64,000 nt of DNA from Escherichia phage Ec_Makalu_003: sequence record MN882349.1; one strand, written 5' to 3'. Each line of letters starts with the position of its first letter. Within the stretch, counting starts at the first letter, position 1. Positions 2,699 through 55,435 of the stretch are shown piece by piece. Position numbers and translations under genes: made by a program. The notes beneath the pieces were generated by a model. The model was not told where the DNA came from and did not search any database. It was given only the letters and a program-made list of their open reading frames with translations.

Positions 2699-3268
2699 AT
2701 GGTTGAAATTCTTCCTATGAGTTCAAAATTGGAGGATATCAGCGAGCGAGAAATCTTTGAGGTGGTGTTCTCTTATAAGGCAACGCCACCTGATGAAAAT
2801 ACCACATACACGATTAAAGAGTTTAAGATCAGCGAGTATCGCCCTAATAAGGGCGTTACCGTTGAAGAAACTAAAATATCTGGTGAGTATCGGGATAGTT
2901 TTTCGCTTGGCGCGGATTCTCTTAAATATATAACGAAAGATCGAATTAAAAAATCTGCCGGAAGTTTTGATGATTTACCAGATCCAACTACAGCAGATCT
3001 ATATTATTTTAACGCTCCTACACGTCTACAGGAGGTTTATACTTATAAAGTAACCCTAACCTATATCCAATCTGTTTCAGAGTCTTCTGGTGGTTCAGGT
3101 GAAGGAAATAGTGGTGGTTCTAACAGTCGAGAGGGTGCTGGTGAAACTAATCCGCCTCCGGTAGTAACCGAACACACAATAGAGAAAGTTTATACTCAAA
3201 CTGTTTTTGGAAATTGGGATGTGTGGAGTAAACAGTTAAGAGATTATGTTAGAAGAAGTGAGGGATAA
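2699..3268 (+). CDS. hypothetical protein at the T4 gene 5.1 position
   Basis: ATG at 2699 with SD TGAGGT; track ORF begins at an in-frame TTG 2696. Gly/Ser-rich C-terminal segment; no recognisable domain. Confidence 0.6.
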   Translation: MVEILPMSSKLEDISEREIFEVVFSYKATPPDENTTYTIKEFKISEYRPNKGVTVEETKISGEYRDSFSLGADSLKYITKDRIKKSAGSFDDLPDPTTADLYYFNAPTRLQEVYTYKVTLTYIQSVSESSGGSGEGNSGGSNSREGAGETNPPPVVTEHTIEKVYTQTVFGNWDVWSKQLRDYVRRSEG

Positions 3269-3269
3269 T

Positions 3270-3809
3270 ATGATTGAAGTAATTCATTACACCAAAGAAG
3301 ATGAAATTTTATATAATAGACTACATGAACTATTTTATGAAGTTGATGGAAAGGTTTATAGAAGGTTCTCTCGTGGGCGTTCTAAAGCAGGAAGTCTAGT
3401 TGGTGGATTGAAGATAAATCCGTGTGGATATAGATATTGGAGACTTGCTGTTGATGGTAAAGAGTTTCAGAGGTCTCATGTTGTTTATCATATGCATCAC
3501 GGACACACTCCAAGAAAACCACTACAAATAGATCATATTAACACAAACTCCCTTGACGACCGAGTTAGCAATTTAAGACCAGCAACCGTTACTCAACAAA
3601 TGTACAACCAAAATAAACAATCCGATTGCACATCTTCATATATTGGTGTTAATTGGAATAAAAACTCCAAAAAATGGGAAGCTAGAATTAGAGTTAATGG
3701 AAAACGAATCCGTTTAGGTCTATTTGATAATGAAATTGACGCTGCGATTGCCTATAACACCGCTGCATTATCTAGAGATTCAAAAGTTAACAAATTAAAC
3801 GATGTATGA
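3270..3809 (+). CDS. HNH homing endonuclease with AP2-type DNA-binding domain
   Basis: HNH segment HMHHGHTPRKPLQIDHINTNSLDDRVSNLRP; AP2-like YIGVNWNKNSKKWEARIRVNGKRIRLGLFDNEIDAAIAYN. Start 3270 chosen (SD GAGGGA); in-frame ATG 3246 also possible. Free-standing between 5.1 and 5.4. Confidence 0.75.
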   Translation: MIEVIHYTKEDEILYNRLHELFYEVDGKVYRRFSRGRSKAGSLVGGLKINPCGYRYWRLAVDGKEFQRSHVVYHMHHGHTPRKPLQIDHINTNSLDDRVSNLRPATVTQQMYNQNKQSDCTSSYIGVNWNKNSKKWEARIRVNGKRIRLGLFDNEIDAAIAYNTAALSRDSKVNKLNDV

Positions 3810-3824
3810 ATATGGGGGTGTTTA

Positions 3825-4118
3825 ATGGCTGGATTATCCTACGATAAAGCTAAAACTACAGGGCACGGAAACTACCCACCTACGGTAATTAATGCAACTC
3901 AATCTAAGGTATTTGTTGAGGGTATCCCTGTATTAGTCGAAGGAGACCCAATTACACCACATACAAAAACAACAAAACCTTATGATACACACGGGGGAAC
4001 TACGGTCGCCAGTACCCCGAAAGTATTTGTTACCGGAAAGAAAGCAATTCAAATGGCAGATCGTATTAGCTGTGGCGATACCGTCGCTATGGCATCACCG
4101 AAGGTATTCATAAAATGA
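3825..4118 (+). CDS. 5.4: PAAR-repeat baseplate spike tip protein gp5.4
   Basis: 97 aa, same size as T4 gp5.4; PAAR-like segments ([27 protein letters not shown]); directly precedes gene 6. Confidence 0.75.
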
Positions 4119-11616: not shown

Positions 11617-11645
11617 AAAGCCGTCCTTGTGGGCGGCTTTTTTGT
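11617..11645 (+). terminator. rho-independent terminator after methyltransferase cassette
   Basis: Hairpin AGCCGTCCTTGTGGGCGGCT followed by TTTTTT. Confidence 0.7.
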
Positions 11646-32816: not shown

Positions 32817-34058
32817 ATGACTCATATTTTTACTGAACTGTTGCGGGAATCTACTTCCTCAGTAGCTAACCAGACAGCGCGACCGCAACTATTATCATTA
32901 ACTCGCGCGGTAAACAACCTGATTTTCTCTGATCTGGTAGCAATCCAGCCAACGGATCAACCAGTATCTGCATTGTACGGACTACGTTATCTTAATCATG
33001 ATGGTCAGATGACTTTCCGAACTGCTGCAACCTACGGTGGCGCGGTTGGTGATCGCACAGAGATTGAAGAGTTTTCAAAAGAAAAATCTTATGAAGAAGG
33101 CGCACTATTCAAATCAGGCGATGTTGTATACGAAGTTGTGACCGCTGGTACAGTCGGTGAAGATGCCGCAACTCCAGAAGCTGCGATCTTTAAAGGCGTA
33201 ATGACAAACAAAATTCGTTTCTATAGCGATTGTGCATCGGTAGAATACTTTGAAGATAAAAACACCGAAATTGCGTCTACCTCTATGCAGTTTGACAAGT
33301 GGCAAGTTAATGTAGGTTCTCGTAAACTGAAAACCTCGTTCACCACTGAATTAATGCAGGATCTTGAGGCAAGCCAAATCAACTCTGAAAACTCTGTAAT
33401 TGATCTTCTGGCTACTGTTGCTTCCGAAGAGATCAACAAAGATATTATTCAGAAGTTGATCACTGTATCATCTCGCTATAAAATTAAAGGGATCACCCCT
33501 GATGGCGTACTTTCTCTCGTTAGCGTTCAGGATGCACCAACACAAGCGCGTGAACTTTACCGCTATGCTTGCGAGATGAGCAATCAAATGTTGCGGACTT
33601 CCTCCTTTGCTGGTACATACGTTTTGGCGTCTTCTCGCGTGGTTGGCCTCCTGCAATCTTCCGGTTGGATGGAAGAAACCGACAATGCTCTAAGCGAAGG
33701 TCGTCTACGTTGCGGTCTGGAAGTTTACGCAGACACGACAACACCTTTCGATTATATGCTCGTTGGTTGCAAGCACATGATCGGTGATATGGAGAGTGTC
33801 GGTTCTCTGTTCTACTCCCCATACACAGAAGCCGACGGCGCTGGCGCGTATAAGAGCGTAATTGACCCTAATAGCTTCCAGCATCATGTAGCTATTATGA
33901 ATCGTTATTCACTCTCTGTCAACCCATACACATCAAAAGTTGATCAGGAAGAACACCAGGTCATCAAGGGTGACGATTGGGGTAAAATGGCTGGACGTTC
34001 AGAAATGTCCTACATTTTAGGAATCGAACTGCCACCACTTGAGATTGACAACGCTTAA
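32817..34058 (+). CDS. 24: head vertex protein gp24
   Basis: 413 aa from ATG 32817 (MTHIFTELLRESTSS...LTRAVNNLIFSDLVAIQPTDQPVSALYG), matching the recalled T4 gp24 N-terminus; the track start 32769 is an upstream TTG that includes the promoter. Confidence 0.9.
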   Translation: MTHIFTELLRESTSSVANQTARPQLLSLTRAVNNLIFSDLVAIQPTDQPVSALYGLRYLNHDGQMTFRTAATYGGAVGDRTEIEEFSKEKSYEEGALFKSGDVVYEVVTAGTVGEDAATPEAAIFKGVMTNKIRFYSDCASVEYFEDKNTEIASTSMQFDKWQVNVGSRKLKTSFTTELMQDLEASQINSENSVIDLLATVASEEINKDIIQKLITVSSRYKIKGITPDGVLSLVSVQDAPTQARELYRYACEMSNQMLRTSSFAGTYVLASSRVVGLLQSSGWMEETDNALSEGRLRCGLEVYADTTTPFDYMLVGCKHMIGDMESVGSLFYSPYTEADGAGAYKSVIDPNSFQHHVAIMNRYSLSVNPYTSKVDQEEHQVIKGDDWGKMAGRSEMSYILGIELPPLEIDNA

Positions 34059-34646
34059 CTAAATATCTAACCAAGACAAGTCAGATCCGCCCAAGATTTT
34101 TTCGACGGCGGATCTATTTTCTTGATGATATAAGTTAAAACATGGTATCCCATGTCTACGGGCAACATAAACAGCAATTCGAGTTCCTCCCGAAACGATT
34201 CCATTAACTTCTTTCGCCCAGAATATCACACAATCTACAGGGTCATCAAGTGTCTCACCTAAGACTTGAGCAACATTTCTAGAAAACAGATTTTGCATGT
34301 ATAACGGTATAGATCGAGGATTATCATAAACGTGTTCTAATTCATCCATCGCCAGATTTTTTTGTTCTAAGGTTTGCCATGCAATCACATCATGACCGTT
34401 ATGCTTATGGTCGTAAAACTTCCAATTTGGAATGAAAATTTTTCTATAATCTGGATCGTAATACTTCATGAAAGCATTGTCCATACCGTAAGCCCCTCCA
34501 GAATGCGCTACAACGCGATTTTCTGACAATACCCTCCCAATGGTACTAGCCATTATCAAAATGTCGCTAGGCGCTTTTCTAGAGCCTATTAAAGCACATC
34601 TACGAAGTGGTTTTACTCCAAATAGATCTTGTAACTGGTCAAACAT
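34059..34646 (-). CDS. DprA/Smf-like (SLOG superfamily) Rossmann-fold protein
   Basis: 195 aa; strong SD GGAGGAAA; motifs CALIGSRKAP, VVAHSGGAYGMD, FSRNVAQVLG, IVSGGTRIAVYVARRHGIPCF resemble the DprA core. Confidence 0.6.
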   Translation of the reverse strand: MFDQLQDLFGVKPLRRCALIGSRKAPSDILIMASTIGRVLSENRVVAHSGGAYGMDNAFMKYYDPDYRKIFIPNWKFYDHKHNGHDVIAWQTLEQKNLAMDELEHVYDNPRSIPLYMQNLFSRNVAQVLGETLDDPVDCVIFWAKEVNGIVSGGTRIAVYVARRHGIPCFNLYHQENRSAVEKILGGSDLSWLDI

Positions 34647-34798
34647 AATATTTCCTCCATAGAAAGCAATATCATACTACAAGTTAATAACAAATACAAG
34701 TATCCGCGTAGCGGAAGCGAGCACAGCGAGCAATAAAACACTTCCAGTAATTGATTAATAAATGTTCGAAACAAATTTTTATTATTCTATAAGATAAG

Positions 34799-34824
34799 TC
34801 TTCGTTTTGATCATAATTTAATCA
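34799..34824. repeat. 26-bp perfect direct repeat, copy 1
   Basis: TCTTCGTTTTGATCATAATTTAATCA; identical copy at 34948-34973 within a 415-bp non-coding stretch. Confidence 0.8.
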
Positions 34825-34947
34825 TACATGTAAAAACGACACAAAAGGATATCGCTTCGCGAACTCCTACGGAGTATAACATTTGTGTTACATTATGTGG
34901 TGATTAATAATTAATCAAAGATACATTTTCTATGTTCTAAAGATCTT

Positions 34948-34973
34948 TCTTCGTTTTGATCATAATTTAATCA
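34948..34973. repeat. 26-bp perfect direct repeat, copy 2
   Basis: TCTTCGTTTTGATCATAATTTAATCA; identical to copy 1. Confidence 0.8.
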
Positions 34974-35024
34974 AACAGTATTAATATTGTCCATATGTAA
35001 ACTAAAATTATGTCAGTAATAGAT

Positions 35025-35052
35025 ACAAAAAAAGCCGCCCCGAAGGACGGCT
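35025..35052 (-). terminator. rho-independent terminator (minus strand)
   Basis: Hairpin AGCCGTCCTTCGGGGCGGCT followed by a T-run on the minus strand, downstream of the ORF at 35061-35498. Confidence 0.65.
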
Positions 35053-35060
35053 AATGTTAA

Positions 35061-35498
35061 TTATTTGTTGATAACGATCTGATTTCGGCGAATGGTGACA
35101 TTGCTCTTAGAGATGACCAGATCATCCGGCACTACGTTAGTTTTGTATGGTTGGAAGCGAACAAGCATCTGATTGCGTTTAGACCCTTCCTTAATCTTGA
35201 TTTCCATCTGGATATTGTTGCCTACGTGAGCAACCGCAATTTCACCTTTATTCTCATAGACCCACTTGCTGGTAACGTCTCCCGCAAAAGCCTTAATAAC
35301 TTGCAATGCTTCGTCGTATGCGGTAGAGCTGTGAACTTTCAGAAGGCCAGCCGTAGCAAGACGGGAGCAGGTGATCGCCGGAGATTGCCAAACATCAACA
35401 TTAATTTGCTCAATCAGAGTAACACCGCCCTGATCAACTGCTTTGAATGCTTCGAACATTGCCTTTTTCATTGCTACGTGGTTTTTACGGAATTTCAT
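35061..35498 (-). CDS. hypothetical protein
   Basis: 145 aa minus-strand ORF, last gene of a three-gene early cassette; no recognisable motif. Confidence 0.6.
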   Translation of the reverse strand: MKFRKNHVAMKKAMFEAFKAVDQGGVTLIEQINVDVWQSPAITCSRLATAGLLKVHSSTAYDEALQVIKAFAGDVTSKWVYENKGEIAVAHVGNNIQMEIKIKEGSKRNQMLVRFQPYKTNVVPDDLVISKSNVTIRRNQIVINK

Positions 35499-35544: not shown

Positions 35545-35820
35545 TCAGGACATTGCCCGTTTGAATGCGTCCATTATAACAGTGTTATTTGGCTTGTCAA
35601 CACGTTTTTGAACTTTATTTTTAAATTTTTTGTTTATGTGGTGTTTACGATAAACAACCTTTTCACGGCTGGCGTAAGCCTCGCGTGCATCTTTTACCAT
35701 CAACCATGCCTTAGCCGCATCTTGTCCGCTGATCCCGCCAATCTTCTTAGCAATATCAACAAAATTAAGACCGTGATCTTCGCGTAGCATGTAAACCATT
35801 AACGCTGTTTTCTTGTCCAT
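35545..35820 (-). CDS. hypothetical protein with putative helix-turn-helix
   Basis: 91 aa; segment LNFVDIAKKIGGISGQDAAKAW resembles an HTH; basic C-terminus. Confidence 0.5.
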   Translation of the reverse strand: MDKKTALMVYMLREDHGLNFVDIAKKIGGISGQDAAKAWLMVKDAREAYASREKVVYRKHHINKKFKNKVQKRVDKPNNTVIMDAFKRAMS

Positions 35821-36180: not shown

Positions 36181-36207
36181 CAAAAAAGCCACCCCGAAGG
36201 ATGGCTG
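36181..36207 (-). terminator. rho-independent terminator after hoc (minus strand)
   Basis: Hairpin AGCCATCCTTCGGGGTGGCT followed by TTTTTT on the minus strand. Confidence 0.7.
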
Positions 36208-55402: not shown

Positions 55403-55428
55403 TAAAAAAGCCGACACTAAGGTCGGCT
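55403..55428 (-). terminator. rho-independent terminator (minus strand)
   Basis: Hairpin AGCCGACCTTAGTGTCGGCT followed by TTTTTT on the minus strand. Confidence 0.65.
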
Positions 55429-55435
55429 AATAAAA

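Follow-up and report, generated by a model that had tools for sequence, protein, structure and literature searches.

The window analysed here, 64,000 nucleotides of Escherichia phage Ec_Makalu_003 (MN882349.1), derives from a Krischvirus, i.e., a T4-type coliphage of the RB49/Phi1/JSE group (best match Ec_Makalu_002, 99.4 %). It contains a 26-mer (TCTTCGTTTTGATCATAATTTAATCA) with two exact plus-strand occurrences (34799-34824 and 34948-34973; 149 nt from start to start) in the gene-free gap between the open reading frames (ORFs) ORF164 and ORF165. This 26-mer is the upstream arm of a conserved non-coding module of ~105-125 bp, present here in tandem, and is neither a chance match nor a scar. 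With a probability of roughly 0.45, it represents an arm of a cis-acting DNA module whose arms would be bound by host Fis, or by a protein of the same specificity, and would gate a weak start site.

The original prediction of a perfect 26-bp repeat occurring twice at a distance of 149 bp proved exact at both positions, and the surrounding stretch is indeed non-coding, its length being 414 bp (34647-35060) and not 415 bp. No further copies with up to three mismatches are present in the window, and 100 dinucleotide shuffles yielded no match to the 26-mer. The duplication is wider than 26 nt, with 34752-34828 and 34901-34977 aligning in register at 73 % identity over 77 nt. Since both flanking genes, ORF164 (34059-34646) and ORF165 (35061-35498; upstream of the modules), are encoded on the minus strand, the module is to be read on this strand, where the 26-mer reads TGATTAAATTATGATCAAAACGAAGA, composed of T, GATTAAATTATGATC and AAAACGAAGA. 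Each module comprises, in this order, a Fis-type arm ending in a weak -35-like hexamer, the box CAAAACGAAGA, a -10-like hexamer 17-19 nt further on, an A+T-rich tract, a second Fis-type arm and two tandem G+C mini-hairpins. The minus-strand reading, the larger module and its dispersed family (see below) were absent from the original prediction, of whose candidates duplicated regulator binding sites came closest: each 26-mer does hold an exact Fis consensus, yet it is only part of a unit with a second such site ~56 bp downstream.

In module A, the left arm (34948-34973, minus strand, as are all features of both modules) contains the Fis-type 15-mer GATTAAATTATGATC (34972-34958) with the hexamer ATGATC (34963-34958) at its end, and the box AAAACGAAGA. 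A degenerate -10-like element (34934-34940) is formed by TTAGAA 17 nt after the hexamer or by TAGAAC at 18 nt; relatives have TATAGA or TATAAT at this position, and the unit alignment and the comparison with the relative L037 show that the window lineage bears a 1-nt deletion. The right arm GATTAATTATTAATC (34902-34916) is a perfect palindrome, and the two mini-hairpins (34852-34875) are A1 (ACTCC-GTA-GGAGT, 34875-34863) and A2 (TCGC-GAA-GCGA, 34862-34852). About 20 bp upstream of the left arm, the sequence GGACAATATTAATAC (34978-34992, minus strand) constitutes a near-Fis site with one mismatch, the equivalent block being an exact consensus match in the relatives L005, L023 and L024. The left arm of module B (34799-34824) has its Fis-type 15-mer at 34823-34809 and ATGATC at 34814-34809, followed by AAAACGAAGA. 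Its -10-like element (34784-34791), TATAGA at 17 nt from the hexamer, overlaps TAGAAT at 19 nt and precedes a tract with 82 % A+T. The right arm GAACATTTATTAATC (34753-34767) is unlike that of module A in sequence, and the mini-hairpins (34703-34731) are B1 (GCTCGC-TGT-GCTCGC, 34731-34717), with a conserved internal CT/TC mismatch, and B2 (TCCGC-TAC-GCGGA, 34715-34703). Over the 45 nt from the -10-like element the A+T content amounts to 73-82 %, as compared to 70 % for the whole gap.

The module is retained far beyond the closest relatives. Syntenic relatives with flanking proteins of 93, 89, 87, 70, 59, 57 and 50 % identity (measured on ORF164, in case of L037 on ORF165) share the order DUF2774 gene, ORF165, gap, ORF164 and, on the opposite strand, gene 24; all of them have two tandem units in the gap, L023 even three, and two short G+C hairpins follow each unit. 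The relative L024 (57 %) possesses its own perfect 27-nt repeat (ATTGATTAAAATATGATCAAACGTCAT, copies 140 nt apart), which is homologous to the 26-mer. The unit pattern across lineages can be described by a left arm TTGATTAAA(A/T)TATGATCAAA(A)CG..., a core ATCT(T/C)TATA(A/G)... and a right arm ...TTAAT(T/A)ATTAATCA. The original prediction regarded absence of the repeat from close relatives as the mark of a simple duplication; it is present in 16 Krischvirus genomes, both copies usually being identical to those of the window. Changes private to one of the two copies occur in G2248, PHB13 and L027, so that the copies evolve independently, if slowly, and gene conversion between them is unsupported within Krischvirus. 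Identity of the two copies over 26 nt would reflect the most constrained arm together with little divergence in Krischvirus, and not a recent accident. A search of viral contigs with the conserved 16-mer TTCGCGAAGCGATATC returned 15 matches, of which the Krischvirus loci and L005/L013 are real and the rest are chance matches in G+C-rich coding DNA. A metagenome scan with the ORF164 alignment added only two near-identical relatives, and gaps of the L024 and L028 types had no match among cultured phages besides the terminator.

The high-affinity consensus of E. coli Fis, GNNYAWWWWWTRNNC (quoted in PMC3302801), is fitted exactly by all four arms in the window (GATTAAATTATGATC twice, GATTAATTATTAATC and GAACATTTATTAATC). 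The entire 64-kb window contains 8 such matches versus 4.2 expected, half of them being the module arms. First-order Markov simulations of each gap (n = 1000) served as a gap-by-gap null: the numbers of matches in the window gap (4) and in those of L027 (3), L005 (6), L023 (5) and L024 (6) were each reached in 0 of 1000 simulations, those in the gaps of L037 (2), L026 (2) and L028 (1) in 5, 4 and 33, respectively. The eight homologous gaps (3,445 nt) together hold 29 exact matches, while six equally degenerate control patterns (ends swapped; Y/R swapped; A/T swapped; A..T ends; ends one base closer; ends one base further apart) gave 0, 0, 2, 1, 1 and 0. Diverged arms, e.g., GTTCAAATATTAAGC and GTGTAATAATTAACC, still match the consensus. 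It is the arm pattern, and not the exact sequence, that stays conserved, as a protein site predicts. By-eye comparison with the motifs of other host factors (Fur, IHF, LexA, DnaA, ArgR, PurR, CRP and TyrR) revealed no fit.

Alignment of the units on the last hexamer of the left arm places a -10-like hexamer (TATAAT, TATAAG, TATAGT or TATAGA) exactly 17 nt downstream in most of them. The arm-end hexamer is ATGATC in the window and TTGAAC, TTCATC, GTGAAC, ATGAGC or TACATC elsewhere; the window units read ATGATC-17-TTAGAA (A) and ATGATC-17-TATAGA (B). With this hexamer taken as -35, the two Fis sites are centred near -37 and +20. Two other assignments were discarded: promoter candidates seen by eye on the opposite strand or further upstream are not conserved across lineages, and a promoter with the right arm as -35 (TTGATT-17-TAATGT) is missing in L024 and L026.

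The mini-hairpins are, judged from their pattern of change, selected structures. Among the four mini-hairpins in seven lineages, two-sided (compensatory) changes affect 11 pair positions; L037 displays an intermediate state with a single A-G mismatch, and L023 has a perfect GCGAGC-TTTT-GCTCGC at the position of B1, where other lineages retain the CT/TC internal mismatch. The loop-closing pair is always C-G. The absence of G-T from all 126 standard pairs suggests that it is the DNA itself, or both strands, that is constrained. The loop sequences favour neither strand (GNA is present as well as its complement TNC), and folds are identical under DNA and RNA parameters, the energies failing to discriminate between the two. 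Each unit is followed by two stable hairpins. Neither the 26-mer nor A1/A2 qualifies as an intrinsic terminator, A1/A2 having no U-run; B2 was scored as terminator-like, its tail being weak. A long hairpin joining the two arms is more stable than shuffles in L024_B (z = -5.6), L028_A (-4.7), L023_1 and L023_3 (both ~-3.5), marginal in the window (-1.7 and -1.9) and absent from L027, L005_A and L026 (-0.5 to +0.8); in view of this inconsistency across lineages it is probably not the primary constraint. Mimicry of clustered regularly interspaced short palindromic repeats (CRISPR), considered for a resemblance of B2 to type I-E and of A1 in L024 to type I-F repeats, was rejected, as the stem sequences covary freely across lineages.

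The original prediction proposed looking for the 26-mer elsewhere in the complete genome. A scan of an effectively complete genome, made up of the Ec_Makalu_002 pieces together with the window (164.9 kb scanned, 164.3 kb after merging overlaps), indeed revealed two more family members with 5 substitutions each, located at ~62.4 kb and ~150.5 kb (Ec_Makalu_002 numbering; in the merged composite, the latter is at 150.1 kb). These modules (C and D) are likewise complete, consisting of the unit, GTGCC-TAC-GGCAC and then TCGC-GAA-GCGA or GTCGC-AAA-GCGAC. They are bounded upstream by a terminator or a divergent gene and point to the next gene; within 10-15 nt follow a T4-type late-promoter motif (TATAAATA or AATAAATA), a Shine-Dalgarno (SD) sequence and the ATG of a late gene, encoding a gp3-like tail completion protein or a tail-fibre hinge protein. 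Identity is 91 % between modules C and D and 61-64 % between either of them and A/B, with CAAAACGAAGA and ATCTT invariant in all copies. Module loci are accordingly situated at 62.4 kb beside the gp3-like gene, at 99.8 kb beside gene 24 and at 150.1 kb between tail-fibre genes, and the four copies probably explain the 3-4 "places per record" in Krischvirus genomes.

Outside this phage group, 53 of 5426 complete E. coli genomes contain a stretch of ~75 bp that is ~80 % identical to the unit. It resides in a prophage with genes for a Rha regulator, terminase and portal protein, in a gene-free divergent region of 1.3 kb. The prophage unit is followed by tandem C-G-closed GAA/GTA/TAC hairpins and, further on, by ~10 GTGTAGG iterons and a copy of the TGATTAATTATTAATC palindrome. 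The corresponding region of E. coli C325 (NZ_CP124819.1; L042, 4926-6229) also has at least six more C-G-closed mini-hairpins and repeated CCTTTC(T/G)A motifs; its composition is suggestive of an origin or control region. Scans of the prophage module region for Rfam families and tRNAs yielded nothing, and the neighbouring prophage genes had no informative family matches. In viral contigs, the module core was detected in 30 stretches, namely three copies in each of two Krischvirus genomes and one in each of ~22 prophage-sized contigs, which share the module plan with varying hairpin sequence; no match was obtained in the genome-contig collection.

In one Krischvirus contig (L059, IMGVR_UViG_3300045988_033703; match at 2805-2827), the late promoter and the gp3 start behind the hairpins of module D are replaced by a consensus TTGACA-17-TAGATT and a new ORF (MSGFKMWDD...). 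In another relative (L041, Logan SRR21291472_17602, 2940-3847; ORF165 88 % identical), a 197-aa HNH-endonuclease-like gene (PHROG 681/559), a 73-aa ORF and an extra terminator are inserted between the ORF165 stop and the usual terminator, the gap having served as landing site for a free-standing homing-endonuclease-type gene. Module gaps are therefore also recombination junctions, as described for this phage group in the papers on promoter-early stem-loops (PeSL). Furthermore, in the 87 % relative L005 an extra insert of ~150 nt (2280-2440) separates the ORF164 promoter region from the start codon; this insert, in which a long hairpin is present (ATACCCTAAAA...TTTTAGAGGGTAT), may constitute a further structured element.

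The following mode of action is proposed for the module. Dimers of Fis, a host nucleoid protein, or of a protein of the same specificity would bind both arms. Positioned at about -37 and about +20 of a weak sigma-70-type start, the two dimers would bend the DNA and gate initiation. As Fis is abundant in fast-growing cells only, initiation would be tied to the growth state of the host. A short transcript would then enter the A+T tract and the hairpins, just upstream of the promoter of the next gene. Each module lies downstream of a terminator or of a divergent gene and ahead of the promoter that belongs to the next gene. Its purpose, conservatively read, may be transcriptional: it could serve as an auxiliary promoter dependent on Fis or as an upstream activating region, or it could insulate the gene that follows. 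Fis binding, promoter activity, physiological role and action as DNA are all inferred.

Several observations weigh against this interpretation. ATGATC agrees with TTGACA at only 3 of 6 positions, and the -10 element of module A is degenerate (TTAGAA) in phage Ec_Makalu_003. A strict promoter scan reports nothing in the gap, in keeping with the original statement that it harbours no consensus promoter, and Nolan et al. predicted no early promoter within the RB49 gap. The eight gaps stem from related lineages, so the 29 matches are non-independent. Moreover, the Fis consensus is degenerate and palindromic, and any dimer that recognizes G-N13-C around an A/T centre would be an equally good candidate. 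Deviations at 1-2 consensus positions (assessed partly by eye) are seen in the prophage arms and in those of modules C and D, apart from the right arm of C, which is exact, and arm-to-arm spacing varies from 53 to 65 bp across lineages with no fixed helical phasing kept. DNA modification has also to be considered: Krischvirus TB34 (L001) has canonical cytosines, while SAP, 99.96 % identical, has fully modified ones (PMC13390438). The former makes it plausible that host proteins can read the DNA of some Krischvirus phages, perhaps not of all, and full modification in phages such as SAP could hamper recognition at the G/C ends. No papers tying Fis to T4-type phages were found in the searchable literature.

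Comparison with known systems helps to delimit the module. PeSLs of Phi1 and RB49 (Arbiol et al. 2010, Comeau et al. 2014) are characterized by promoters identical to the sigma-70 consensus and number ~50 per genome. They occur in the same phage group and are likewise intergenic composites, in which a promoter-type sequence with A+T-rich DNA upstream is joined to a stable stem-loop, at junctions of ORF gain or loss (L059, L041); also the junction of hairpin B2 with the ORF164 promoter is PeSL-like. In contrast, the module has a -35-like hexamer agreeing at 3 of 6 positions and a variable -10, in place of a consensus promoter. Of its 4 copies per genome, two precede conserved late structural genes, whereas PeSLs lie mostly in hyperplastic regions upstream of ORFans. 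Paired Fis-type arms, the invariant CAAAACGAAGA, two tandem triloop hairpins and the position ahead of late promoters further distinguish it. The published definition of a PeSL thus does not fit the module, which also matches no Rfam family and is neither a tRNA nor a terminator. No published PeSL or promoter prediction covering it was found in the accessible literature, although the RB49 genome paper (PMC135041) or the PeSL supplement may mention it.

E. coli Fis sites cluster in the upstream activating sequences of stable-RNA promoters and at Fis-repressed promoters such as that of fis itself. Similar to these, the gaps contain several high-scoring sites within 100-300 bp of a promoter, some of them ~20 bp apart (L005, L023, L024) and some over the -35 or early transcribed region; they differ in belonging to a virulent phage and to prophages, and in that the sites form a dyad around the -10 and not a phased upstream array. 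The mini-hairpins resemble the d(GCGAAGC)-type mini-hairpin, a GNA triloop closed by C-G, which is a structural motif and not a functional family. Exact GCGAAGC is found in A2, in its counterparts of L005, L037, L023 and L024 and in module C, and most other module loops are GNA or the complement TNC and C-G-closed; the conserved tandem pairs with covarying stems set the module hairpins apart. The T4 origins oriF (uvsY) and oriG (34) span ~100 bp and consist of a promoter and an A+T-rich unwinding element forming an R-loop primer, in late-gene regions near strand switches (Kreuzer and Brister 2010). Shared with them are the length and the presence of several copies in late regions near strand switches, and putatively also a box near -30 in place of a -35, a sigma-70-type -10 and the A+T-rich element. 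Unlike the T4 origins, the module has no MotA box, its phage group has no MotA gene, and the sequences are dissimilar; neither Fis-type arms nor hairpins are described for T4 origins, and a role of the module as origin is a candidate one.

It is possible, though on balance unlikely, that the modules are replication origins of MotA-less T4-type phages, which would be compatible with Fis binding. A transcript from the weak promoter would form a persistent R-loop in the A+T tract and prime the leading strand, as at T4 oriF/oriG, while Fis bending would aid opening, and hairpins forming on the displaced strand would stabilize the open state. RB49-type phages have neither MotA nor middle promoters, and modules of origin-like size (~105-125 bp, 73-82 % A+T over the 45 nt from the -10-like element) stand at three dispersed loci, two of which (D and A/B) lie within 1-2 kb of the main cumulative GC-skew turning points at 64 kb and 98-99 kb. 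This positional argument is weak (p ~0.03-0.1, own estimate), since gaps and regulatory elements also cluster at strand switches, and the A+T content barely exceeds the 70 % background of the gap. The invariant CAAAACGAAGA would occupy roughly -30 to -21, the position of the Mot box in T4 origin promoters; the hairpins without G-T pairs evolve in a DNA-like manner; and the prophage copy is located in the 1.3-kb gene-free divergent region with ~10 GTGTAGG iterons. One may speculate, with similarly limited confidence, that all four modules act as RB49-type origins in which a Fis-assisted weak promoter fires into an unwinding element and mini-hairpins stabilize the strand, the cassette being shared horizontally with temperate E. 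coli prophages, where it sits beside an iteron array. However, tandem duplication or triplication of an origin has no obvious reason, replication-protein matches are missing among the prophage neighbour genes, and the modules invariably have the orientation of a gene promoter and lie immediately ahead of it, which fits a transcriptional role equally well.

Action as RNA, i.e., as a structured transcript or leader for post-transcriptional control of the downstream gene, appears doubtful. Here, the arms would pair as a long A-U-rich hairpin and the mini-hairpins would act as 3'/5' stabilizers, processing sites or protein-binding sites. The arms are complementary, units of several lineages fold better than shuffles (z down to -5.6), and the inner stem differs yet stays complementary in L024 (AAACGTCAT/ATGACGTTT) and L028 (GTACGTTTTCTCTATA/TATAGAAAAAACGTAT). 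The mini-hairpins covary and fold well as RNA, and -35/-10-like geometry followed by two conserved hairpins would suit the small RNA locus of the original prediction. Nevertheless, the long hairpin is marginal in the window phage and absent in L027, L005_A and L026; the left arm follows a strong terminator with no evident promoter between, and a start after the -10-like element would leave it outside the transcript. G-U in 0 of 126 pairs would be unusual for a selected RNA structure, Rfam gave no match, and the arms keep the Fis-type pattern rather than their pairing partners. Still less probable are operators for a phage-encoded dimeric protein (the DUF2774/gp24.3-like protein, ORF165 or a DsbA-type double-stranded DNA-binding protein) repressing or activating the module. 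Such operators would account for arms that are 15-17-bp palindromes (TGATTAATTATTAATCA is a perfect 8-1-8), for the order DUF2774 - ORF165 - gap - ORF164 kept in all relatives and for arm copies that are closer within a genome than between orthologues (window, L024), as expected from co-evolution with a cognate protein. Yet ORF165 and the DUF2774 protein have no recognizable DNA-binding domain, the presence of the module in unrelated temperate prophages without DUF2774/ORF165 genes favours a host factor, and the fit is specific to the independently published Fis consensus (29 matches versus 0-2 for controls). A functionless repeat, be it a PeSL-type recombination duplicate or a selfish intergenic repeat resembling miniature inverted-repeat transposable elements, is very improbable, even though PeSL shuffling is documented in Phi1/RB49, the 3' edge of the module in L059 is a recombination junction, an HNH gene has entered the L041 gap and the module is dispersed and common to prophages. 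Motifs, order and hairpin pairing are syntenic at 50-70 % flanking identity, where neutral intergenic DNA would be unrecognizable; the Fis-type pattern outlasts sequence turnover; terminal inverted repeats with target-site duplications are not evident; and the copies evolve independently in Krischvirus with no ongoing conversion. The recombination scar or simple duplication originally considered is likewise at odds with tandem units kept at such distances, covarying hairpins and two more genomic copies. A type III toxin-antitoxin layout, in which tandem RNA repeats precede a terminator and a protein gene, was dismissed, the units measuring 140-170 nt versus ~36 nt and ORF164 being DprA/SLOG-like.

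Near the upstream end of the gap lies the intrinsic terminator of ORF165 (AGCCGTCCTTCGGGGCGGCT followed by T7; 35033-35052, minus strand), which was found by terminator scan as the only canonical one in the gap and forms the upstream boundary of the module array. In RB49, this terminator was the sole prediction in the gap, with an early promoter placed upstream of ORF165 (Nolan et al. 2006). The latter (Pe:98401) corresponds to a promoter at 35573-35600 (minus strand) with 12/12 agreement to the sigma-70 consensus and an extended -10 TG, typical of PeSL promoters in appearance. The terminator (35028-35052) has near-identical kin (86-92 % identity) at three other intergenic sites of the window (11619-11643, 36182-36206 and 55404-55431), and the L024 terminator is 97 % identical to one at ~58-60 kb in Krischvirus genomes. 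Downstream of the modules, TTGTAT-17-TATGAT (34671-34699, minus strand) is the probable ORF164 promoter; it went unreported by the strict scan, and its -35 abuts hairpin B2 in a PeSL-like manner. Its geometry is kept in L024 (TTGATT-17-TATAGT) and L026 (TTGTGT-17-TATAAT). The ORF164 SD sequence GGAGG (34658-34654, minus strand) precedes the ATG at 34646.

The label "DprA-like" of ORF164, homologues of which occur in >1,300 phage records, rests on PHROG 768 and on a sub-threshold match to Pfam DNA_processg_A that covers residues 15-60 only (22.3 bits versus a cut-off of 29.6). The stops of late gene 24 (plus strand) and ORF164 (minus strand) adjoin at 34058/34059 without a terminator between them; late read-through from gene 24 would run antisense to ORF164 and both modules. 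As originally stated, there is no tRNA cloverleaf, none being found by ARAGORN. Rfam 15 yielded no family at gathering score in the window, and E-value mode gave, at best, generic terminator matches for the gap, with scores far below threshold. Two small ORFs of the gap (MIKTK..., starting within the 26-mer, and one of 23 codons over the hairpins) were rejected, as they have no SD sequence, are unconserved and suffer 1-nt indels between strains.

RB49-type phages have no MotA, no recognized middle promoters and no mapped origins, no Krischvirus transcriptome was found in the literature, and the working of T4 origins other than oriF/oriG is listed as an open question by Kreuzer and Brister; the modules provide concrete candidate sequences. 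The module family, previously undescribed, spans virulent T4-type phages, uncultured relatives and temperate prophages, and its sites fit a host growth-phase protein. In the most modest reading, a parts list is now available for ~230 bp of regulatory DNA that is conserved in a therapeutic phage group and lacks annotation. If Fis binds, a virulent phage would read the physiology of its host via a nucleoid protein. Should replication be fired by the modules, these would represent a second, MotA-independent origin design, which would explain early replication starting within late-gene regions.

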